Below, in pieces: positions 4,081-63,599 of a stretch of 64,000 nucleotides of DNA. The notes under the pieces were generated by a model. It saw only the letters and a list, made by a program, of their open reading frames with translations, ran no database searches and was not told the DNA's origin. Both the position numbers and the translations under genes were made by a program. Within the stretch, counting starts at the first letter, position 1, and every line of letters starts with the position of its first letter. This stretch comes from Polyangia bacterium (GTDB lineage: Bacteria; Myxococcota_A; Polyangia; Fen-1088), in NCBI GenBank assembly GCA_045802645.1, contig JBJMQQ010000013.1:1588-65587 (forward strand), in the 5' to 3' direction.

Positions 4081-5529
4081 CTACCTCAAGGCCAGCGTCG
4101 AGGCGCGCCACGCCGGCGAGCTCCAGCGCTTGAAGGCGAGCAGCTTGCCGGCGTTGTTGGCCCACTTGTCCACGGATAGCGTCGGCGCGTCCAGCACCTG
4201 GAACCGGCGGCTGGGGCGACCGTCGACGTGGGCTTCGCGGACGACCAGCAGCTTCCCGCCGTCGGGCGACATCCCGGCCGCCTCGACGTAGCCGGCGCCC
4301 GCGTCTGGGTCCGCCGCCGCCGGCGTCAGTGTGTCGATGGTCCAGGCGGCGCCCGCCGGCGCGCGGCGGATGACCCACAGCTCCGTCCAGGCCGGCAGCG
4401 GCTGCACGGCGATCGTTGCGACGTTCCCAGCGGCGGCCCAGCGCAGCGCGCTCGGCCAGACGACGCCGAACGTGCAGCGCTCGCCCAGGACCGCGTGCTT
4501 GCCGCCCCCGTCCACGACGCGGAGGCAGGTCTCGCCCGGTGCTCGCGACGCGACGGAAATGGCGACAGCCCGGGGCTGGCCTGGGCTCGGCGGGGCCTCG
4601 CCCGCCCAGCGGGAGGCGGCCACGCGAACGGCGACCTCGTCGTAAACCGCGCCGTCCTCCGGCGCCAGCACGCCCCGGTCCGCCAGCGCCAGCTCGCGCA
4701 CGGCGGTCCCTTCGGCGCGCGCGGCTGCGTCCAGCTGCCCCTGGCGCGCCTGGTCGAACGCCCGCCAGGCGTACGCCTCGGCGCGCCGCAGCCGCACGCG
4801 TCCCACCAGCGCCGGTGAGATCGATCTTTCGGCGATGAAGTCGATCGAGGTCAGCGCCTGCAGGCGACGGTCGTTGAACGCCCGCGTCAACGTGGGTGGC
4901 GCCGTCACATCGGCGCAGCGGTCGACGGACAGCGCCAGCGCGGCGCGCGCCCGCTCGATGGGTGCCGCGTTCGGCGTCGCCAGCACGCGTTCCCAGGCCT
5001 CGCCGTCGTAGCAGACGCGGGTGCGTCCGGTTGGCGTCTCCGGGTCAACGACGTTGAACTTCACCCCGTAGCTGGCCGCGACCTCCAGGTGGGCAGCCAG
5101 CATCGCGTCTTTCGCGTCGAGCCGCCGCGCGGACGCCCGGCGCGCCAGCCGGTCCGCCATGCTGCCAATCGCCGCCAGCAGCTCGCTCTGGTCGGCGCCA
5201 GGCGGCGCCGTTCGCAGCGCGAGCGCGGCGTAGCCGATCCCCAGCGACTCGTACCCGCCGGCATCGCGCAGGAATCGGACGACCGCCGTCAGCTCGGTCG
5301 TGGCGGTGGCGTCCAGCGGATACTCGCGCACCTGAGAGGGACGCACGTACCCGGGGCGCTCGTGCCGGTGGTCGTACACCCGCAGGAACCCCGCCGCTTC
5401 GCCGCGCACCTCCAGCCAGTCGCCGCGCGCCAGCGTTGCCTGCGCGGGGGCGTCGTCGCGGGGGGCATTACGCAGCACCGCCGGATCCTCGGCGACCAGC
5501 GCGACCAGCAACACGGCGGCCGCGCTCAT
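4081..5529 (-). CDS. Putative secreted protein with N-terminal SH3b-like domain, function unknown
   Basis: 482-aa ORF with a hydrophobic N-terminus (MSAAAVLLVALVA). GDWLEVRGEAAGFLRVYDHRHERPGYVRPSQV resembles the bacterial SH3 fold (GxWLxV...GYV). Its start shares 1 nt with the upstream SPFH stop (TAATG). Confidence 0.6.
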   Translation of the reverse strand: MSAAAVLLVALVAEDPAVLRNAPRDDAPAQATLARGDWLEVRGEAAGFLRVYDHRHERPGYVRPSQVREYPLDATATTELTAVVRFLRDAGGYESLGIGYAALALRTAPPGADQSELLAAIGSMADRLARRASARRLDAKDAMLAAHLEVAASYGVKFNVVDPETPTGRTRVCYDGEAWERVLATPNAAPIERARAALALSVDRCADVTAPPTLTRAFNDRRLQALTSIDFIAERSISPALVGRVRLRRAEAYAWRAFDQARQGQLDAAARAEGTAVRELALADRGVLAPEDGAVYDEVAVRVAASRWAGEAPPSPGQPRAVAISVASRAPGETCLRVVDGGGKHAVLGERCTFGVVWPSALRWAAAGNVATIAVQPLPAWTELWVIRRAPAGAAWTIDTLTPAAADPDAGAGYVEAAGMSPDGGKLLVVREAHVDGRPSRRFQVLDAPTLSVDKWANNAGKLLAFKRWSSPAWRASTLALR

Positions 5530-6809
5530 TACTCGGCCTCCGCGTTGTCGTTGGCGGCGCGGGTGGTGGCCGGCGCGTTGGTGTTCGCCGCGACGGGCCC
5601 ATGCGCCTGCATGCCCAGGAGTCCGCCCGCGAAGAAGCCGCCCGCCGAGGGCGGCGCGACGATGACCTGGATCTTGTCGGACAGCTTGTCGGCCAGCGTC
5701 TTCTGGATCAGCAGCGGGTTGCGGGCGATCAGCGCCGAGTCGCGCGCCATCTGGTCGGCGTTGGCCTTGCCGGTCGCCTCGATTCGGTAGGCGTCAGCAT
5801 CCGCCAGCTTCCTGCGCGCGTCGGCCTCGGCGGCGGTCTCGATCTTGCGAGCCTCGGCGTCGCCTTCCGCGTCCTTCATGCGCTGCACCTTGCGGGCCTC
5901 CGCCTCCAGGCGCCGCTGCTCGATCTCCTTCTCCTTCAGCGGGAGCACGTGCTTCATCGCCTCTTCACGGGCCTTGGCCGCGATGATCTCCTCGGACGCG
6001 GCGGCCTCGGCGGCCTTTTCGCGCTGGACCTTCGCGGCGTCCGCGTCCAGCTCGGACTCCTTCACGCGCTTCTCCTTGAGCTGCAGCGTGTAGCGCATCT
6101 TCTCGGTGGCCAGCTCCTCGGAAAGCATCCCTTCGAGCCCCTTGCGGTACTGCTCGGGCAGGTCGACGTGCCCCAGGTAGAGCGACCGCACCGTGATGCC
6201 GTCAGGCGCCAGCAGGCCACGCAGCTCGCCCTGGATGTCGTCCTGGATTTCGACGCGTTTGTCCGTGAAGATCTCCCGCACGGTGTGCCGCGCCAGTGCC
6301 CGGTGCAAGACCCCTTCCACGACCGGCTCGATCAGATCGTGCCCCACGTTGACCGGCAGGCGCTTGGCCACGTCGCCGACCCGGTTCGGATCGATGGCGT
6401 AGCGGACCGTCACCGCCACACCGACCGACAGCCCCTCGACCGTCTGGAACGGCGCGGGCCCGTCGGCGCTCGCGCTCTCCTGCGGGCGGTAGACCTGGTC
6501 GCGAAGCGGATAGCGCCGCAGCTCGTGCACCAGCGGCACGATCACGGTCGGTCCTTCGGGGATCACGCTCAGCCCTCCTGTGAGGCGGTTCAGGCGCACG
6601 CCGACCTCGCCGGCGGGCACCACCTGCACGGGCGGGCGCAAGCCGATCAGCAGCACGGCGCCCGCGATGAAGCCGGCCGCCAGGTAACGGCGGTGGCGCG
6701 GGCTGCCGAAGGTCTCGATGCAGCCCAGCGCCACGGCGGCGCCGGCGGCCCGCACGAAGACGTACGTCTGGATGGCCACTCGTTTGAAACGTTCGCGGAA
6801 GGTCGTCAT
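5529..6809 (-). CDS. SPFH/band-7 (stomatin/prohibitin/HflK-like) membrane protein
   Basis: N-terminal TM helix, then a band-7 core (VIPEGPTVIVPLVHELRRYPLRDQVY...VGVAVTVRYAIDPNRV...). Long Ala/Glu/Lys-rich coiled-coil C-terminus. RBS AGGAGAttccATG. Confidence 0.85.
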   Translation of the reverse strand: MTTFRERFKRVAIQTYVFVRAAGAAVALGCIETFGSPRHRRYLAAGFIAGAVLLIGLRPPVQVVPAGEVGVRLNRLTGGLSVIPEGPTVIVPLVHELRRYPLRDQVYRPQESASADGPAPFQTVEGLSVGVAVTVRYAIDPNRVGDVAKRLPVNVGHDLIEPVVEGVLHRALARHTVREIFTDKRVEIQDDIQGELRGLLAPDGITVRSLYLGHVDLPEQYRKGLEGMLSEELATEKMRYTLQLKEKRVKESELDADAAKVQREKAAEAAASEEIIAAKAREEAMKHVLPLKEKEIEQRRLEAEARKVQRMKDAEGDAEARKIETAAEADARRKLADADAYRIEATGKANADQMARDSALIARNPLLIQKTLADKLSDKIQVIVAPPSAGGFFAGGLLGMQAHGPVAANTNAPATTRAANDNAEAE

Positions 6810-6833
6810 GGAATCTCCTTTGGGTCTGCAGGT

Positions 6834-7283
6834 TCACGAAACGGTGAAGGTCACGCCCGCCAGCCGCCGACCGTCTGGCCCGAACACCTCGACGGTCGTT
6901 CGGCCCGGCGGCACGCGGTGGCGTGACCAGGTCCGCCAGCAGCGGTCATCGCCGACAGGCATGTAGTGGCGGGCGATCTCGACGCCGTCGCGGGTCCAGA
7001 CGTGCTCGATGAACCCGGCGCCGTGACCCGCGATCGTCGTGTGCGCGTAGACCTGCTCGCCGGCGGCGAACGGGCGCTCGGCGGTCGGCCCGTCGATCGG
7101 GTCGCGGTTCACGATCCGACGAGCCAGGGTGAGGGTGGCGAGAGGTGCTTGCGTCGGCTCGCCCGCGAACGCCCGCGCCGACATCAGAAACTCGAGTCCG
7201 GTCATGCTGGACCTGAATTGCAGCCGGCGTGCCGTCGCCCGGAGAGGCCGATCCACCGGGACTTCGAGGTCCCAGCGGCGCAA
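6834..7283 (-). CDS. Hypothetical protein (last gene of the SH3b/SPFH operon side)
   Basis: 149-aa ORF on the same strand 24 nt upstream of the SPFH gene. I recognise no family. The true start may be an internal Met. Confidence 0.4.
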   Translation of the reverse strand: MRRWDLEVPVDRPLRATARRLQFRSSMTGLEFLMSARAFAGEPTQAPLATLTLARRIVNRDPIDGPTAERPFAAGEQVYAHTTIAGHGAGFIEHVWTRDGVEIARHYMPVGDDRCWRTWSRHRVPPGRTTVEVFGPDGRRLAGVTFTVS

Positions 7284-7285
7284 TC

Positions 7286-7321
7286 TATGTTTTACATATC
7301 CTTTTCTGTAGAATGGCTGAG
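7286..7321. promoter_or_regulatory. AT-rich divergent promoter island (tttacatatccttttctgtagaatgg)
   Basis: This is the only strongly AT-rich stretch in a ~70% GC region, lying between divergent genes. It contains TTTACA and TAGAAT hexamers, and TAGAAT overlaps ATG 7313. Confidence 0.35.
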
Positions 7322-7651
7322 ATGAACGGCGACTCCTGGTTGGCTCGCGTGCGCCACGACCTGGTCAAGCGCCTCGTCTGGCCGGCGCGCGATCGGCGCG
7401 ACGCCGGCGGGCGCGTCATCCCCGGTGAGCTGGTGGCGTCCGTGATCGACGAGGAGGGGCAACCCACGACGGCCGGGGCGTTGTGGGCCACGCTGGCCGC
7501 CGACGCGCCGACCGGGGCGGGCGTGGCGGCGTTCGGCGCGGCCGTCGCGCGCGCCGTCGACGCCGCGCGAGCCGGCGACCTGGACGGCGTCTTGGCGCTG
7601 GAGGCCGCGTTCACGGCTTTGGCGCGATCCTTGGATGGAGAGACGAGCTGA
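7313..7651 (+). CDS. Small hypothetical protein, first gene of a 4-gene signalling operon
   Basis: ATG 7313 (alternative ATG 7322) inside ORF 7229..7651. Its stop overlaps the next start (TGATG). I recognise no domain. Confidence 0.5.
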   Translation: MAEMNGDSWLARVRHDLVKRLVWPARDRRDAGGRVIPGELVASVIDEEGQPTTAGALWATLAADAPTGAGVAAFGAAVARAVDAARAGDLDGVLALEAAFTALARSLDGETS

Positions 7652-9371
7652 TGCCCCGCGTGCTCGTCGTCGACGACCGAGATCAGACCATCGACATGGT
7701 GCACCGGCAGCTGCCGCACCTGGAGACGGTGACCCGCTGCGATCGCCGCATCCCCTGCCAGGTCTGCGAAGAGCGGACGCGCGGCTGCCCGCTGCGCTGC
7801 GCGCACGACTTCGCGGAAGCGGCCGCGGTGCTGGCCCGCGCGCCAACGCTGCCGGACCTGGTCGTACTGGATCTCCACTTCGCGCTTCCGGAAGAGCGCC
7901 TCTTGCCCGAGGACAAGTCCGACTTGCCGGCGGACCCCAAGGCCCGTCGCGCCGCGCTGGAGCGGCTGCGGCGCCGCCAGGGCCTACTGATCCTGGAGCG
8001 GCTGCGCGGGCTTTATCCGGCGCTGCCCGTCGTCATGCTGACGACGACGGGCTCGGACCTGGGCGCCGAGCGCCCGGACGATCCGCTGGTCTATCTGTGC
8101 GAGAACGAGGTTGTCGACAGCCGCAGCCTGGCCGCCGAGATCTCCCGCGCGCTGGCGCTGTCACACACGGCGCAGGAGGGGCCGGTCTTCTGGGGGCGCA
8201 CGCCGGCCATGACCGAGCTGCGGCGGCAGCTGGAGGCGCTGGCCCGTTCGCCGCTGCCGCTGCTGATCGAGGGGGAGACCGGAACCGGCAAGAGCTTCCT
8301 GGCCGAGCACGTGATCCATCCTCGCTCGGGCGTGAAGGGGCCGCTGGTTGTGACCGATCTGTCGACGGTGCCGCCCTCGCTGTTGGCGGCGCACCTGTTG
8401 GCGCGCGCCGGGGGGCTTACACCGGGGCGATCGAGGACCACGCGGGGGTGTTCGAGCAGGCGCATGGCGGCACCCTGTTCGTCGACGAGATCGGCAACCT
8501 GGATCTCGACCTGCAGCGGCAGCTCCTGCTCGTGCTCGAGCGGGGGCAGGTCACGCGCCTCGGCGACACACGGCCGCGCCCGGCGGCGCCGCGGCTGGTC
8601 GCGGCGACCAACTCCGACCTGGACGCGGCGGTCCGCAGCGGCCGGTTTCGCCCCGATCTCTTCATGCGGCTCAACCCCGCCACGCGGCTGCGGCTGCCGC
8701 CGCTGCGGGAGCGGCGCGCCGATCTGCCCGAGCTGGTGCGCTTCGCGTTTCTCGAGGCGCTGCGGTCGGAGGCGCTGCAGCCGCTGGTGCGCGCCTACCT
8801 GGCCCGGTTTCCGACGCCGGACCCCTTCGACGATGCGCGGAACGAAGTCGTGTTCGGGCGGCCGCGGGCGGCGGTCGCGCGGCGCGACGCGTTCACCGTG
8901 TTCATCAGCCGCGAGGCGCTGGCGCGCCTGACGGACAGCGACTGGCCGGGAAATCAGCGGGAGCTGAAGCTGCTGGCGGCCAACGCGGTCGTGTTCGGGC
9001 TGACCCAGCATCTCGACGGCGAGGGTGTCGCCGAAGCCGCGCGTGCTCCAGCCGTGCTGGACGTCCCCGACCCGCTGATCGCGCGCCTGCTCGGCGGCGA
9101 CGTGCGCCGCAGCCCCAAGCCGCGAGCCACCGGCGCGGGGCGAGCCGGCGGCCGGCGGATCGAGGTGGAGGTCGCGGCGCACGGAAGCTTCGCGCGCGTC
9201 TCGGCGGACGTCGAGCGCCAGTACCTGCGCGCGCTTTACGAAGCCTGCGCGGGCGACCTGGCGCGGATGGCGCGCGAGCTGCTGGGTCCCGCCGGGACCG
9301 CTCGCCAGGTCCACCTGCGCATGAACCAGCTGGGGCTGCGCGTTCGCGACCTGCGGGGGGCGACGCCGTGA
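7651..9371 (+). CDS. Sigma-54-dependent transcriptional activator (NtrC-like EBP) with an atypical Cys-cluster receiver-like N-domain; apparent frameshift in G6 run at 8410-8415
   Basis: N-terminus VLVVDDRDQ...LVVLDLHF is receiver-like and carries CDRRIPCQVCEERTRGCPLRC. The AAA+ sigma-54 interaction domain (LLIEGETGTGKSFLAEH ... GAYTGA ... GGTLFVDEIG) is split between ORF 7483..8931 (frame 1) and ORF 7635..9371 (frame 2). Adding one G to the 6-G run restores ...LLARAGGAYTGAIEDH... A C-terminal Fis-type HTH is present (RQYLRALYEACAGDLARMARELL). Confidence 0.85.
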
Positions 9372-12280
9372 TCGCGGCGCTGGCGTTACTGGCGGGGCTC
9401 GCGATCGCGGACGGTGGCGTCGCCCCCGACGCGGCGGCAGTCGTCACGGCGCCGCCAGCGTCGCCGGCCAGCGTGTCGCCGCCGTCCGAGCTCGCCGCTC
9501 GCGTGCGCGCGAAGAGCGAGCACGCGCAGGGCCTGGCGGCGCTGCGGGCGGGCCGCGCCGAGGACGCCGCGCAGCTGTTCGGGCAGGCGGCGGGACACGA
9601 CCGCGGCAACGCGACGTACCTCACCGATTGGGGGTTTGCGCTCGCGAAGGTCGGCAAGCGTGCCGAGGCCGAGGCGGCCCTGCGCGACGCGATCGACAAG
9701 GAGCCGCGGCGATTCTACGCGTACGTGAACCTGGCCGATTTGCTGGCCAGCGATCCCGCGCGCTGGGAGCGGCGCGACGCGATCGTGACATTTCTCGACA
9801 AGGGGCTGGACGCGCTGAAGGAGGACCGCAAGGGGCGCTTCAACCTGGCCCTGGCGCTGGCGGGGTTCGAGCGCGCCGTCGGGCGGACCGCCGAGGCGCG
9901 GTCGCGGCTGGCGCCGTTGCTGGACGCGGCCGCGCCGCCGCTGACGCGGCTGCAGCGCAAGCGGGTGCTGGACCTGCTGGATGCGGTGGCCCTCGACGAT
10001 CGGGCGCGCTCCCTCGAGGACTGGCCGGCGCCGGCGCCCGACGTCGCGCGACGGCTGGCGCACGACGCGCGGGCCGCGGAAGAGAGCGGGCGCGTCGACG
10101 ATGCCATCCGCGACCTGGAGATCGCCGTCAACCTGGCGCCGTCGGACGGCGAATCCTGGCGGGCGCTGGGGCGCTTGCTGGCGGCGAACGGCGGCGCGCT
10201 GGAGCTCGATCGCGCCGACGACGCGCTCCGCAACGCGCTGGCGCTGGAGCCGGGCTGGGCGGATCTGCGAGAGCTGCGGGCGCAGATCGCGCGGCGCAAA
10301 CACGCGGCTGCCGCGACGACCGCGCCTTCTCGGGCGCCCGCCCCGTCGGAGAAGGCCCGCGCGCTGGTGCAGGAGGCGGAGGACTGGATCGACGTCGGCG
10401 ACCCGATCGGCCTCGGGCGCGAGATGCTGGAGCAGGCGCTGGCCGATTCGCCCGCGTTCGTTTCGGCGGCGCTGTCGCTTTACGCGCTGACGGGGACCGT
10501 GCCGGAGGCCACCGTGTCGGCGTTGCAGGACGACGGGCCGGGGCTGTGGGCCCTGGCGGCGGGTGTGCGCAAGCTGGGCGCAGGTGGCGCGCGCGGCGCT
10601 GGACGCGAGCCGGACGGCACGGTGGCGGTTGAACGGCTGGTGCGCCCCTGGATCGATCGCGCCGTCGAGCTGAATGTGCAGGACGCCCGGTTCGCGCGCG
10701 CGACGGCTCGCGCGGCCGCGGGCGATCGGGACGGGGCGCTGGCCGATCTGGTCGCCTACCTGGCGCGCGAGCCGGCACCGGAGCACCTGGCGGAAGCGCG
10801 CGCGTTGCGGGCCGGGCTGCTGGACGACGCGGGCAGCGGTGCGCGCCAGAGCCGGCTGCCGCCCCAGCTGGTCGCGCGCATTCGCCTGGTCGAGGACCGA
10901 CCGGACGCTGCGTTGCGCGCCCTGGGCGGTGCCTGCGCGGCCGGCCTTCCCGTCGAGCGGCTGCTGGCGATCGGCGTCGTTCACGAGTTCGCGGATCGCC
11001 GGGGCGCGGCCCGTGCCTGTTACGAGCTGGCCGCGCTGGGCGGTGAGGGGGCGGCGCTGATCCGGCTGGCGCGGCTGGACGCACGGCTGCCAGACGCCGA
11101 GCTGCGGGCCGCGGACCGGGCGCTGGTGGATCGGGCGGCCGCGCAGGGGGTGGGCGCCGCGCTGTGGGCGCGCGCCCGCCTGGAGCTGGCGGACGGCAAC
11201 CAGGAGGCGGCGCTGGCCGATGCGCGCGCGTCGCTCACCCGGGCGCAGGGCTCTGCCGATTCAATCGATCCCTGGATGCCAGCCGCCGCCGCGATCGAGC
11301 ACCAGCTGGCCGACAGGCGCCGCGCCAGTCAGGAGGCCCGCCGCGTGCGCCGCCAGCGACTGGCCGGTGGGATGGGCGTCGCGGTCGTGGCGGCGATGCT
11401 GGCGATGTTTCGCCGGCGCTGGCGGGGCAAGACGCTGCCGGCGGCGTTGCGCCGGCACCCCGAGCTGTTCCCGGAGCTGGCGCGGGCCGTCGCCGAGTTG
11501 CGCCACGACGTCCTCAAGCACCGCGCGGGTGTGCTGGGCGCGGTCGCGGACGAGGCCGCGCGCGACGAGGTCCGCCGCGCGATGACCGAGCCGCGGCCGA
11601 CGTCGCAGGTGGTGGCGGATCTTTACGGCAAGGTCGCGCAAGCGGGGCGGGGGGCGGGCGTCGCGCTGAAGCCAATCGAGCGTGAGCCGACGTTCGGTCC
11701 GCTGGTCGCCGACCTGGCCAAGGCCGAGCATCTGCTGGCGCGTGCGGCGACCGCGGGCACTGCGGAGTTGCTGGCCATCGACGCGCGGCTGCGCGGCGAG
11801 CACGCCGATCGCCTCAACGCTCTCCTGGAGCTGGGGCCGCGCACCCGGCTGGACGCGGCGGTGCTGTCGTCCTGGATCGGCGGCGTCGAGGCGGCGGTGC
11901 GGCGGGCGGGGCTGGCCTGGACGGCGCCCGGGCTCTCGCTGGCCGATCTGCAGGTCGACTTCCCCGTCGCCGAGCCGGCGCTGGCGGCGATCTTCGCCAA
12001 CTTGCTGCGCAACGCGCAGGCGGCCGTCGCAGGCCAGACCGACCCGCGGGTCGTCGTGAAGCTGGATCGCGCCCGCGACGTCACCGGACGCCCGCTGGTC
12101 AGCCTGTCCGTGGGTGACTCGGCGGCGGCCACGCTGACCCTGGAAGCGATCGAAGGGCGCGAGAGCGGACGCGGGCTGGCGATCGTGCGCGACGCCGTCC
12201 GGCACTGGCGCGGCCACCTGGTGGTGCGACCGGAGGCGCCCCCGGTCGCGAAGGCGATCGGGGCCGTGTTTCCGACATGA
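9368..12280 (+). CDS. Sensor histidine kinase-like protein with large periplasmic TPR-repeat domain, one TM helix and C-terminal HATPase_c domain
   Basis: GTG start overlaps the EBP stop (GTGA). Signal peptide MIAALALLAGLAIA. ~650 aa of TPR-like Ala/Leu/Arg-rich repeats. TM helix GMGVAVVAAMLAMF. Possible H-box ELRHDVLKH. C-terminal HATPase_c (IFANLLRNAQAAV ... GRGLAIVRDAV). Confidence 0.75.
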   Translation: MIAALALLAGLAIADGGVAPDAAAVVTAPPASPASVSPPSELAARVRAKSEHAQGLAALRAGRAEDAAQLFGQAAGHDRGNATYLTDWGFALAKVGKRAEAEAALRDAIDKEPRRFYAYVNLADLLASDPARWERRDAIVTFLDKGLDALKEDRKGRFNLALALAGFERAVGRTAEARSRLAPLLDAAAPPLTRLQRKRVLDLLDAVALDDRARSLEDWPAPAPDVARRLAHDARAAEESGRVDDAIRDLEIAVNLAPSDGESWRALGRLLAANGGALELDRADDALRNALALEPGWADLRELRAQIARRKHAAAATTAPSRAPAPSEKARALVQEAEDWIDVGDPIGLGREMLEQALADSPAFVSAALSLYALTGTVPEATVSALQDDGPGLWALAAGVRKLGAGGARGAGREPDGTVAVERLVRPWIDRAVELNVQDARFARATARAAAGDRDGALADLVAYLAREPAPEHLAEARALRAGLLDDAGSGARQSRLPPQLVARIRLVEDRPDAALRALGGACAAGLPVERLLAIGVVHEFADRRGAARACYELAALGGEGAALIRLARLDARLPDAELRAADRALVDRAAAQGVGAALWARARLELADGNQEAALADARASLTRAQGSADSIDPWMPAAAAIEHQLADRRRASQEARRVRRQRLAGGMGVAVVAAMLAMFRRRWRGKTLPAALRRHPELFPELARAVAELRHDVLKHRAGVLGAVADEAARDEVRRAMTEPRPTSQVVADLYGKVAQAGRGAGVALKPIEREPTFGPLVADLAKAEHLLARAATAGTAELLAIDARLRGEHADRLNALLELGPRTRLDAAVLSSWIGGVEAAVRRAGLAWTAPGLSLADLQVDFPVAEPALAAIFANLLRNAQAAVAGQTDPRVVVKLDRARDVTGRPLVSLSVGDSAAATLTLEAIEGRESGRGLAIVRDAVRHWRGHLVVRPEAPPVAKAIGAVFPT

Positions 12281-12723
12281 CGGCTGCTGGCGTCGCGCGC
12301 CGGGTGTTCGTCGTGTGCGAGGACGGCACCGAGTACATCGATCGATTTCGCCGGTTCCTGGGCCAGTCGTTCGACTTCGTGGCTGCGCCCGATTTCGCGG
12401 CCGCGCGCGGTCTGGTCGCTGAAACCGACGGCCTGCTGCTGGACCTGGATTTCCGCCGGACGCCGCCCGAAAGGTTGGTCGACGAGCAAGGCCAGTCCGC
12501 CGCCGGGGTCGACGCGGGCACGCGCGCACGATTGGCGGAGACTCAGGGCATCCTGATCCTCCGCCGTCTGCGCGCCGAGGGGATCGTCACGCCAGCCGTT
12601 CTCTTCGCCGACCTCGACGACGACGCGCAGGCGGAGTTCCTGCGCCGAACGCTGGCCCCCCTGACGCTGGCGCCGAGCCGCCTGGGCCTGCGCGAGCTGG
12701 CCGCTCTGTTGCGGGGCTACTGA
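12277..12723 (+). CDS. Stand-alone atypical receiver-like domain protein, paralogous to the N-domain of the adjacent sigma-54 activator
   Basis: ATGA overlap with the upstream gene. VFVVCEDGTEY...LLLDLDFRRTPPERL...QGILILRRLRAEG aligns with the EBP N-domain VLVVDDRDQT...LVVLDLHFALPEERL...QGLLILERLRGLY, including the same insertion after the putative phospho-Asp. Confidence 0.65.
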   Translation: MTAAGVARRVFVVCEDGTEYIDRFRRFLGQSFDFVAAPDFAAARGLVAETDGLLLDLDFRRTPPERLVDEQGQSAAGVDAGTRARLAETQGILILRRLRAEGIVTPAVLFADLDDDAQAEFLRRTLAPLTLAPSRLGLRELAALLRGY

Positions 12724-27111: not shown

Positions 27112-28140
27112 TTGCCCGGTATGACACACCTCTCGCCCCATTTTCGCCGACGGTTCCGGCTCGGTCTGGTCTGCGCCACGACGCTGGCGCTGCTGGGCTG
27201 CGGGGGCAGCCCGGCGGGATCTCCGACGGGGGCGGGTGGGGCAGCGGCTGCGGGCGGGTCGGGCGTGGGCGGGTCGGGCGGCGTCAAACCTGGGTCGGGC
27301 GGTTCGACGACGGCGGGAATGGCGGGTCGCGGCGCCGGGGGAACCGGCGCGGGCGCCGGCGGGGCGGGTACGGGCGGAACCGGCGCCGCGATGGGCGGGG
27401 GGACCGGCGGCAGCGCCGGCGGGGGCGTGATCAGCAAGGTCGGCATCACCCAGTGCAACGACGGCATCGACAACGACGGTGACGGCAAGATCGATCTCGC
27501 CGATCCCGAGTGCACGGGACCCTACGACAACGACGAGGGTTCGTTCGCGACCGGCATTCCGGGCGACAACATGGACGCCTGCAAGCAGGACTGCTTCTTC
27601 GACGGCAACTCGGGGATGGGCGACGACGGCTGTCTGTGGCAGCTACAATGCGACCCGCTCAGCAACGAGCCAAAGTGCGCCTACGATCCCAGCTTCGTCT
27701 CGCACCATTCGGCCGAGTGTTCGATCTCGGACTCCCAGTCGCAGCACTGCATCGACAAGTGCCGGCCGGTGACGCCGAACGGCTGCGACTGTTTTGGTTG
27801 CTGCCAGGTTCCAGGCGTGGGGCACCCGATTCGCCTCGACTCGACCTGCAAGACCACCGCGGACTTCGGCGATCCCAACAAGTGCCCGGCCTGCACGCAG
27901 GTCACGCAATGCATGAACACCTGCGGGCATTGCCAGCTTTGCCTCGGCAAGACGACGCTGCCCCCCGACTGCGCGACGGGCGGCGGCGGCGGCGGTGCGG
28001 GGACCGACGGAGGTGCCGGCACCGACGCTGGCCCGCCGGTGCCGCAGTGCGATCCCGGCGTCCAGCCGTGCGGCCCGGATCTGCCGGGCTGCCCCGAGAG
28101 CGCCGCCTGCATCACGGGCTGCTGCATCCCGCTGCCCTGA
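27112..28140 (+). CDS. Gly-rich-linker lipoprotein with Cys-rich domain containing a MopE-like putative metal-binding motif
   Basis: Lipobox LALLGCGG. A ~70-aa Gly-rich linker. CNDGIDNDGDGKIDLADPEC (DxDGDG Ca/metal-binding-like motif) followed by a >20-Cys domain. Confidence 0.7.
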   Translation: MPGMTHLSPHFRRRFRLGLVCATTLALLGCGGSPAGSPTGAGGAAAAGGSGVGGSGGVKPGSGGSTTAGMAGRGAGGTGAGAGGAGTGGTGAAMGGGTGGSAGGGVISKVGITQCNDGIDNDGDGKIDLADPECTGPYDNDEGSFATGIPGDNMDACKQDCFFDGNSGMGDDGCLWQLQCDPLSNEPKCAYDPSFVSHHSAECSISDSQSQHCIDKCRPVTPNGCDCFGCCQVPGVGHPIRLDSTCKTTADFGDPNKCPACTQVTQCMNTCGHCQLCLGKTTLPPDCATGGGGGGAGTDGGAGTDAGPPVPQCDPGVQPCGPDLPGCPESAACITGCCIPLP

Positions 28141-62084: not shown

Positions 62085-62170
62085 GGCGCGCAGATTATGC
62101 GCGAGCGTGCGGGCCGGCGCAGGAATTGCGGCGGCCTGGAAAAACAGCCGCGCTGGACAGGACTTCCCGG

Positions 62171-62186
62171 TGGCGCGGCGGTTGCA
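62171..62186 (+). promoter_or_regulatory. Sigma-54 promoter-like element TGGCGCGGCGGTTGCA upstream of sigma-54 activator gene
   Basis: -24 TGGCGC, -12 TTGCA, exact spacing. Followed by AGGAG 62201-05 and GTG 62217. Confidence 0.5.
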
Positions 62187-62216
62187 ATCCCGACCATCCA
62201 AGGAGCTGTGCGCACC

Positions 62217-63599
62217 GTGGAAAGCAAAGGACGGATTCTGATCGTCGACGACGAGGTCAATGCCCGCACCGCGCTCGTCGAGCTGCTGCGCGACGAGGGC
62301 TACGCTGCCGAGTCGGCGGCCGACGCGTTCAAGGCGCTGGGCAAGGTGGCGGACTTCGCGCCCGACCTGGTGGTCACTGATCTCAAGATGCCCGGGATGG
62401 ACGGGCTGCAGCTGCTCGCCAAGCTGCGCGAGGGCGACCCCGACCTGCCGATCATCGTGATGACCGCGTTCGGCGAGGTCGAGACGGCAGTGAAGGCGAT
62501 GCGCTCGGGCGCGCGCGACTACCTGTCCAAGCCCGTCAACGTCGGCGAGCTGTCCGTGGTCGTCGCGCGGGAGCTGGAACAGCGGCGGCTGCGCGCCGAG
62601 ACCGGCCTCTTGCGCCAGCGCCTGTCGGAGAAGTACAGCTTCTCGAACATCATCGGCAGCGCGGCGCCCATGCAGGCGGTGTTCAAGACGGTCGCCCAGG
62701 TCGCGTCGTCGCGAGCCACCGTCCTCATCACCGGCGAGTCGGGGACGGGCAAGGAGCTCATCGCGGCGGCCATTCATCAGCGCAGCACGCGCGCGAGCGG
62801 ACCGTTCGTGAAGCTGCACTGCGCGGCCCTTGCCGAATCGATCCTGGAGAGCGAGCTCTTCGGGCACGAGCGCGGCTCGTTCACCGGCGCGCAGGCGCGC
62901 CGCGACGGGCGCTTCTTCCAGGCCCACAACGGCACGCTGTTCCTGGACGAGATCGGCGAGATCTCGCCGGCCGTCCAGGTGAAGCTGCTGCGGTTCCTGC
63001 AGGAGCGCGAGTTCGAGCGGGTCGGGGGCAACGACACCATCAGCGTCGACGTGCGCCTGCTGGCCGCCACGAACCGCAACCTGCAACAGATGGTCGCCGA
63101 CGGAAAGTTCCGCGAGGACCTCTTTTATCGCCTGAACGTCATCACCGTCGAAATGCCGGCGTTGCGCGCTCGGCTCAGCGACGTGCCGCTGCTGGCGTCG
63201 TTTTTCCTGCGCAAGTACGCCGCCGAGAACGGCAAGGACGTCCGCGGCTTTTCGGGCGAGGCCCTGGATCTGCTGAGCGGATATGCCTGGCCAGGGAACG
63301 TGCGCGAGCTAGAGAACGTCGTCGAGCGCGCCGTGGTGCTGGCGCAATCCGCCGAGGTGACGCCGGCGGATTTGCCCGCCCATCTCGGCGCCGGCAAGGG
63401 GCGCGCCGGCGTGCAGATCCCCGGCGCGACGATGGACGACATCGAGCGCTACGCGATCACCAAGACGCTGGAGGCGACGGGCGGCTCGACGAGCCGGGCC
63501 GCCGAGATGCTGAACATCAGCGTCCGCAAGATCCAGTACAAGCTGCACGAGTACGAGAGCGCCCCCAAGTCCGCCCGTTCCGCGATCAGTCAGGCGTAG
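62217..63599 (+). CDS. Sigma-54-dependent response regulator (NtrC family: receiver + AAA+ + Fis HTH)
   Basis: ILIVDDE...VVTDLKMPGMDG receiver. GESGTGKE Walker A. GAFTGA-equivalent GSFTGA. C-terminal HTH AAEMLNISVRKIQYKL. Confidence 0.88.
   Translation: MESKGRILIVDDEVNARTALVELLRDEGYAAESAADAFKALGKVADFAPDLVVTDLKMPGMDGLQLLAKLREGDPDLPIIVMTAFGEVETAVKAMRSGARDYLSKPVNVGELSVVVARELEQRRLRAETGLLRQRLSEKYSFSNIIGSAAPMQAVFKTVAQVASSRATVLITGESGTGKELIAAAIHQRSTRASGPFVKLHCAALAESILESELFGHERGSFTGAQARRDGRFFQAHNGTLFLDEIGEISPAVQVKLLRFLQEREFERVGGNDTISVDVRLLAATNRNLQQMVADGKFREDLFYRLNVITVEMPALRARLSDVPLLASFFLRKYAAENGKDVRGFSGEALDLLSGYAWPGNVRELENVVERAVVLAQSAEVTPADLPAHLGAGKGRAGVQIPGATMDDIERYAITKTLEATGGSTSRAAEMLNISVRKIQYKLHEYESAPKSARSAISQA

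Follow-up and report, generated by a model that had tools for sequence, protein, structure and literature searches.

A stretch of 64,000 nucleotides (nt) from contig JBJMQQ010000013.1 of a Polyangia bacterium, referred to here as the window, carries a gene for a sigma-54-dependent transcriptional activator that has a cysteine-rich loop in its N-terminal domain. The gene belongs to a cassette of four genes with overlapping stop and start codons, which encode a 109 amino acid (aa) protein, the activator, a 970 aa protein and a stand-alone receiver. A second group of genes, coding for DUF2914 and SPFH proteins, lies upstream on the opposite strand (Table 1). An earlier note on this DNA had described the loop as five cysteines inserted into a receiver-like domain, and had proposed a metal-binding or redox-sensing role by which sigma-54-dependent transcription could be gated.

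Table 1. Positions of the features discussed in the text, numbered from the first nucleotide of the window.
Feature	Position	Strand	Basis or remark
Divergent operon, presumed target	4081..7205	-	Pfam, synteny, downstream of conserved promoter
482 aa protein	4081-5529	-	Pfam, weak SH3-like matches
SPFH/Band 7 protein	5529-6809	-	Pfam Band_7, 1.6e-18
DUF2914 protein	6834-7205	-	Pfam DUF2914, 5.8e-7
-24/-12 element, CGGCAC-N5-CTGCA	7219..7234	-	points towards the DUF2914-SPFH operon
A+T-rich repeat, TTCTAYAGAA, ~12 bases, AAAAYATAGA (minus-strand reading)	7283..7315	.	intergenic alignment, 27 loci
Small upstream gene, 109 aa	7322..7651	+	invariant motif WLaRvRHDLVKRlvWPARD; syntenic in 66 loci
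Sigma-54 activator gene: receiver-like, AAA+, weak Fis-type helix-turn-helix	7651..9371	+	disrupted in the window
Receiver-like N-terminal domain, residues 1-177	7651..8181	+	AlphaFold, Foldseek, alignments
Cysteine loop, C30-x5-C36-x2-C39-x6-C46-x3-C50	7738..7800	+	translation, ortholog alignment
Second insertion, ~29 residues (81-109), after the acceptor Asp, LDLHFALP...RRRQG	7891..7977	+	alignments
One-base deletion, C of a TTC Phe codon	8399..8400	+	DNA alignment with the four closest orthologs (L001-L004)
970 aa protein: TPR region, membrane segment, kinase-like part	9368..12280	+	Pfam, motifs, synteny
Stand-alone receiver-like paralog	12277..12723	+	29-residue insertion present, cysteine loop absent; synteny
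Canonical NtrC-type response-regulator activator	~62097-63599	+	receiver 62226-62588: DD/D/T/K, no Cys, no insertions

The cysteine loop and the domain that carries it

Translation of the loop region gives CDRRIPCQVCEERTRGCPLRC, which corresponds to residues 30–50 of the activator. The conserved block around it extends from about T28 to D53 (7732–7809) and takes in an invariant histidine, H52. The source DNA has a G+C content of approximately 70%, and a six-frame scan of the window gave 62 stretches of 21 residues with at least five cysteines, found mainly in non-coding frames. The density of cysteine taken alone is thus weak evidence, and the stretch might be a functionless chance or neutral by-product of G+C-rich sequence, of the kind common in the wrong frames of this DNA. 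This appears extremely improbable, however. The loop is in the true frame of the activator gene, the protein of which matches Sigma54_activat (1.7e-50) once a one-base deletion, described below, is repaired. Cysteine makes up about 1.1% of the residues of ten neighboring real proteins, and the binomial chance of at least four more cysteines within the next 20 residues is approximately 4e-5. In addition, the cysteines are invariant across 70 species despite synonymous variation, and the loop is kept in a sister group at about 35% identity. With these conservation data a chance origin is effectively excluded; the loop is a genuine insertion under strong purifying selection.

The orthologs were collected in a scan of one genome per species, which gave 71 loci, 70 of them covering the region of the loop. 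All are from metagenome-assembled genomes of uncultured bacteria assigned to Polyangia, Myxococcales or 'Deltaproteobacteria', for which soils and peat are the main sources. The N-terminal domain is 63–97% identical to that of the window. No other part of the cassette, the AAA+ domain included, is as well conserved, which fits a surface required to match several partners.

When 1.84 billion representative proteins were searched exhaustively with a profile, no more than 108 relatives came to light, and these form three groups. A second profile search, in a set of 5.8 billion proteins, yielded little that was new, most of its matches being group A fragments already found. Group A consists of the orthologs of the window protein and has the loop Cx5Cx2Cx6Cx3CxH. 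Group B, the sister group, is about 35% identical and shows Cx5Cx2Cx4-6Cx3HxH, with the fifth cysteine replaced by His and occasionally by Asn or Arg. Group C is without the loop, and strand 2 passes directly into helix 2; the position of H52 is Arg in this group, whereas the loop-bearing groups have His. All members in the databases bear only generic annotations, either 'NtrC family response regulator' or 'sigma-54-dependent Fis family transcriptional regulator'.

C30, C36, C39, C46 and H52 are unchanged in all 70 orthologs, and the codons of the four cysteines vary synonymously between TGC and TGT (4, 16, 4 and 12 TGT codons, respectively). R29, P35, V38, R42 and A51 are also invariant. C50 is replaced by Gly, Ser or His in three of the 70 (His in the ortholog L065), and in group B the position is His, Asn or Arg. 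When groups A and B are aligned together, the four cysteines are invariant in 79/79 sequences, eight of these being from group B, with the core pattern Cx5Cx2Cx4-6C. Since C50 can be replaced and the other four are constant, the selected core consists of four cysteines, accompanied by a Cys/His position at 50 and by His52. A ligand set of five cysteines was ruled out, as some members have G, S, H, N or R in place of C50. The cluster of five cysteines pointed out in the earlier note is present in the true frame, but only four belong to the conserved core; the note had regarded lack of conservation in orthologs as evidence against a role, and the cysteines of the core are kept throughout.

The N-terminal domain scores only 18.7 bits with Pfam Response_reg (PF00072), for which the cut-off is 30.2, and the match is limited to the part from helix 3 to strand 4. 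AlphaFold models nevertheless display a (beta/alpha)5 fold, with a predicted local distance difference test score (pLDDT) of 77.5 when 15 sequences were used and 86.7 with 47. The top Foldseek matches are all receiver domains, including NtrX, DctD, NtrC1, FleR and HupR, with template modeling (TM) scores of about 0.6–0.77; for the deeper model the probability is 1.00 to many receivers, with TM of about 0.66–0.77 normalized to the target. None of the 79 aligned sequences departs from D8/D9, D74 (the acceptor Asp) and T131 at the pocket positions. However, the conserved lysine after strand 5 is absent: the domain reads YLCENE where K-P is found in the canonical receiver of the window, which served as an internal comparator, and in CheY and NtrC.

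The loop adds about 21 residues between strand 2 and helix 2. This insertion is missing from group C, from the stand-alone paralog, from the canonical NtrC-type receiver of the window, and from CheY and NtrC. In the model from 47 sequences it has a pLDDT of about 82 and forms short turns and helices at 36–38, 40–44 and 47–49. The second insertion, which follows the acceptor Asp, is common to groups A, B and C and the stand-alone paralog, and has a pLDDT >90 in the deeper model. Even taken alone, an insertion of 29 residues at this place is uncommon among receivers. When PDB sequences were searched with the profile of the family, ordinary receivers only were matched, over helix 3 to strand 4, and neither insertion was found in any solved structure by this search. 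In the receiver fold all strand-to-helix loops are on the pocket face, and so both insertions decorate the face where phosphotransfer takes place.

The description of the cluster as an insertion, absent from canonical receivers and from the stand-alone paralog, is thus borne out by the alignments. The designation of the host domain as receiver-like stands for the fold and the DD/D/T pocket, but the score below the Pfam cut-off, the lack of the conserved lysine and the second insertion make it a strongly divergent receiver.

The activator gene, the cassette and the divergent operon

The ATG of the activator gene overlaps the TGA of the upstream open reading frame by one base. The repaired product is 573 aa long and matches Sigma54_activat (PF00158) over residues 182–343, and AAA_lid_14 as well (3.2e-7). 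Walker motifs are present (GETGTGKS and LFVDEI). The loop of the GAFTGA type reads GAYTGA at 8412–8429, in the shifted frame; the orthologs have HLFGARRGAYTGA and the sister group GAFSGA. The C-terminal match to HTH_8, a helix-turn-helix family, is weak (14.2 bits, cut-off 22), and the protein reaches no NCBIfam equivalog cut-off, e.g. it scores 204 bits with ntrC against a required 558.6. The domain match and the GAYTGA motif confirm the host protein as a sigma-54 activator, as had been suggested, and its gene adjoins a conserved -24/-12 promoter.

The reading frame of the gene is interrupted, a point that the earlier note did not mention. The window reads CTGTT-GGC where the four closest orthologs read CTGTTCGGC, just upstream of the GAYTGA motif. 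As a result, the frame that starts at 7651 is right only to 8399, and the remainder of the AAA+ domain and the C-terminus are in the frame of the open reading frame at 7635–9371. The AAA+ domain is thus split between two frames. Orthologous open reading frames with a stop inside the fetched locus are intact in 60 of 60 cases, with lengths of 514–613 aa. A programmed frameshift was considered and ruled out, as all 60 read straight through the site.

If the deletion is real, the gene is a recent pseudogene and the loop gates nothing in the source genome, irrespective of its role in the intact orthologs. The deletion is seen against four orthologs, the site is outside any long homopolymer run, and the 60 complete orthologs are intact, all of which would agree with such an inactivation. 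On the other hand, the downstream frame is still open for 323 codons and is 92% identical to that of the closest locus, L001, which leaves either an assembly error or a very recent inactivation. The neighboring genes show no other frameshift. Many of the homologs from metagenome assemblies are frameshifted at other positions, indel errors being common in such data, and because of this an assembly error is judged considerably more likely; a real loss of the gene seems rather improbable.

The order of the four cassette genes is kept in essentially every sufficiently long locus. The small upstream protein is found fused to the activator in one relative (P0161), and hhalign pairs it with the H-box region of the neighboring kinase-like protein (probability 67%, E = 5e-5). 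Its role may be that of a stand-alone phosphotransfer domain or of a kinase mimic. The 970 aa protein shows Pfam TPR families and a weak HATPase_c match (0.005–0.04); an H-box-like motif (ELRHDVLKHR), an N-box (NLLRNA) and a G-like box are conserved. The stand-alone receiver is 36% identical to the N-terminal domain of the activator in a tblastn comparison (E = 1.4e-4). A group B locus has the same parts, but here the TPR protein is separate from the kinase-like protein. In addition, a gene for a B12-binding radical SAM protein and a giant TPR protein (>2288 aa) are near the cassette of a group B locus (L075, 1920–3359).

The -24/-12 element is approximately 417 nt upstream of the ATG of the activator, on the opposite strand. 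Of 72 sequences (the 71 loci and the window), about 42 have it in the corresponding position and on the corresponding strand, and it is always just upstream of the first gene of the divergent operon. Its GGCAC and CTGCA blocks are fixed and the spacer is variable. A scan limited to the window for TGGCAC-N5-TTGCW gave no enrichment (26 hits, 23.6 expected), and the promoter becomes visible only when the 72 sequences are compared. The start codon follows the -12 element at a distance of only about 14 nt in the closest relatives, which suggests that the transcript of the divergent operon is nearly leaderless there. The simplest reading of position and conservation is that the activator would drive the DUF2914-SPFH operon.

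The A+T-rich repeat is situated between this promoter and the small upstream gene, in an intergenic region that is otherwise G+C-rich. It is a candidate binding site for the activator or for integration host factor, or a candidate promoter of the cassette.

Elsewhere in the window, at 27112–28140 on the forward strand, there is a predicted secreted or lipoprotein-like protein of 342 aa with a Gly-rich N-terminal part and a Cys-rich C-terminal domain, e.g. CPACTQVTQCMNTCGHCQLCL. The latter is probably a disulfide-rich extracellular domain.

Possible functions of the loop

The cysteine loop is probably a metal site of some kind. This assessment is made because a stretch of 17 residues holds four invariant thiols, position 50 alternates between Cys and His, and a further histidine is specific to the groups that have the loop. 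The more definite proposal, a selected metal-binding site with C30, C36, C39 and C46 as ligands, aided by Cys/His50 and His52, is given even chances. As the metal, zinc is placed slightly ahead of an iron–sulfur (Fe–S) cluster; a zinc-organized structural or docking loop is given slightly less than even chances.

Structural Cys4 zinc sites are often present or absent between lineages of one fold, e.g. in adenylate kinase lids. The loop would follow this pattern, as it is missing as a whole from group C. The interchange of Cys in group A with His in group B and in L065 at position 50 also points to zinc, as do the charged, exposed and short nature of the loop and a modeled Pro-Cys-x-x-Cys knuckle followed by a short helix. 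By analogy, the atypical response regulator HP1021 binds zinc in a Cys-dependent manner (PMC8266642).

In the mechanism proposed, binding of the metal ion would give the loop the shape of a small, rigid knuckle. This knuckle and the 29-residue insertion would jointly reshape the surface where the N-terminal domain meets its partners, possibly the three other proteins encoded in the cassette: the TPR protein with its kinase-like part, the small protein with the H-box motif and the stand-alone receiver. Contacts of the loop with these partners or with the pocket could in this way allow the input domain to control the AAA+ module, and the latter would activate the conserved sigma-54 promoter, the putative target, in front of the divergent DUF2914-SPFH operon.

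Several observations weigh against this proposal. There is a single CxxC knuckle (C36-x2-C39), with other spacings of x5, x6 and x3, and typical zinc ribbons have two. Neither zinc nor Fe–S families of Pfam match the loop in Pfam and NCBIfam scans of the N-terminal domain or of the loop alone. The 17-residue span and the spacing also fit compact [4Fe–4S] loops, so that zinc is not clearly favored. As the receiver lysine is missing, phosphorylation of the domain itself is uncertain. The group without the cysteines apparently works with an otherwise similar domain, and the loop is thus not essential to the fold. The link between activator and promoter is drawn from position and conservation only, and the copy of the activator gene in the window carries the frameshift.

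Alternatively, the four cysteines may coordinate a [4Fe–4S] or [2Fe–2S] cluster, to which Cys/His50 or His52 would contribute as a substitute ligand or in the second sphere. If O2, nitric oxide, reactive oxygen species or iron limitation caused this cluster to be lost or oxidized, the input domain would be altered and sigma-54 transcription gated. This is a stronger form of the idea in the earlier note, the interpretation of which is partly supported overall, and we consider it possible but unlikely. Four invariant cysteines in 17 residues with one CxxC are closer to Fe–S regulators and loops than to classical zinc ribbons. Known Fe–S spacings are Cx6Cx2Cx5C in endonuclease III, Cx2Cx5C in FNR and WhiB, and Cx5Cx5Cx2H in IscR. 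The exchange of Cys and His three positions past C46 recalls Cys3His [2Fe–2S] sites. The loop is also on the active-site face, so that the state of a cluster could affect signaling directly, and a precedent is found in VnfA, which has a Cys motif in its sensory domain and a reconstituted Fe–S cluster (PMC9542535). However, searches of Pfam, NCBIfam and PDB sequences gave no homology to Fe–S families. As the loop is short and has many charged residues (R29, R32, E40, E41, R42), a cubane cluster would be poorly shielded in it. Furthermore, the cassette and the presumed target operon give no pointer to redox, iron or nitrogen-oxide metabolism, and the soil and peat origin of the hosts is uninformative.

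The cysteines might also act as a thiol switch, either metal-free or as a zinc-thiolate that releases zinc on oxidation, and form disulfides or persulfides under oxidative or sulfane-sulfur stress, the change in the thiols regulating the activator. Group A does have two further semi-conserved cysteines, C50 and C150. The latter (8098–8100), at the end of strand 5 and on the pocket face, is Cys in 68 of 71 group A sequences. In HP1021 the affinity for zinc drops on oxidation (PMC8266642), and in Cupriavidus FisR, a sigma-54 activator, cysteines of the regulatory domain are reported to contribute to sulfide induction (as cited in PMC7315123). But four invariant cysteines close together and a Cys/His exchange fit a metal site better than a switch of two cysteines. 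Each of C50 and C150 is replaced in 3 of the 71 sequences, the sister group has neither, and no sulfur-oxidation or peroxide-defense genes are found nearby. A thiol switch thus appears quite improbable.

A further suggestion, which is tentative and rather doubtful, is that the receiver is a two-input device, with a redox- or iron-labile Fe–S cluster or a zinc-thiolate switch placed beside the phospho-acceptor pocket. Activation of the SPFH operon by phosphotransfer from the kinase-like TPR protein would then depend on the proper state of the cluster. To our knowledge, a metal cofactor built into a receiver domain has not been described.

No matching Cys, Fe–S or zinc loop was found in literature searches that covered receiver domains, including those of sigma-54 activators. 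The activator appears to be new in having a contiguous Cys4 loop in a receiver; the NtrC-type architecture itself is known. Like NtrC, NtrC1, DctD, NtrX and FleR, which include its nearest structural matches, the protein combines a receiver-like domain, a sigma-54 AAA+ domain with a loop of the GAFTGA type, and a putative C-terminal Fis-like helix-turn-helix, and its gene is adjacent to a kinase-like gene. It differs from them by the Cys4 loop, the 29-residue loop, the missing lysine and the receiver score below the cut-off, and the kinase-like partner in the cassette is atypical.

VnfA and AnfA of Azotobacter and rhizobial NifA are also sigma-54 activators, with conserved cysteines needed for activity. 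The Cys motif of NifA is in an interdomain linker, and Cupriavidus FisR, as cited in PMC7315123, likewise has its cysteines outside a receiver. All three control nitrogenase genes and not an SPFH operon, and they have no sequence relationship to the loop; in VnfA and AnfA the Cys motifs are in a GAF domain and not in a receiver fold (PMC9542535). HP1021/CemR, an orphan of the Campylobacteria, resembles the window activator as an atypical response regulator in which cysteines bind zinc and act as a redox switch (PMC8266642). However, its cysteines are dispersed instead of being grouped in one contiguous Cys4 loop, it does not belong to the sigma-54 activators, and the sequences are unrelated.

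Among compact loops, the [4Fe–4S] loop of endonuclease III and MutY (Cx6Cx2Cx5C) and the retroviral-type zinc knuckle (Cx2Cx4Hx4C) also have their ligands in one stretch of about 14–17 residues with a single CxxC, the spacings of the window loop that can be compared with them being Cx5Cx2Cx5-6C and Cx2Cx6Cx3(C/H). This is a likeness in spacing only, in another fold and with no detectable homology, and it cannot decide the metal.

With respect to the target, PspF and pspA are similar in that a sigma-54 activator is divergent from the sigma-54 promoter of an operon for a membrane-associated coiled-coil or scaffold protein. PspF is not known to have an input domain and is controlled by the binding of PspA. 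Here, by contrast, the presumed target codes for SPFH and DUF2914 proteins, and the activator is equipped with a complex input domain as well as kinase-like partners.

Receivers are among the commonest signaling modules and are normally switched only by the phosphorylation of one Asp. If the proposal is true, a Cys4 site beside the pocket would provide such a module with either another input of a different chemical nature or a docking surface that depends on metal. The known carriers of the loop are all uncultured Polyangia, and the Cys5-His, Cys4-His2 and loop-less versions, each in a similar conserved cassette, provide a natural comparison. The cassette is also a candidate regulator of bacterial SPFH proteins, whose regulation is poorly understood.

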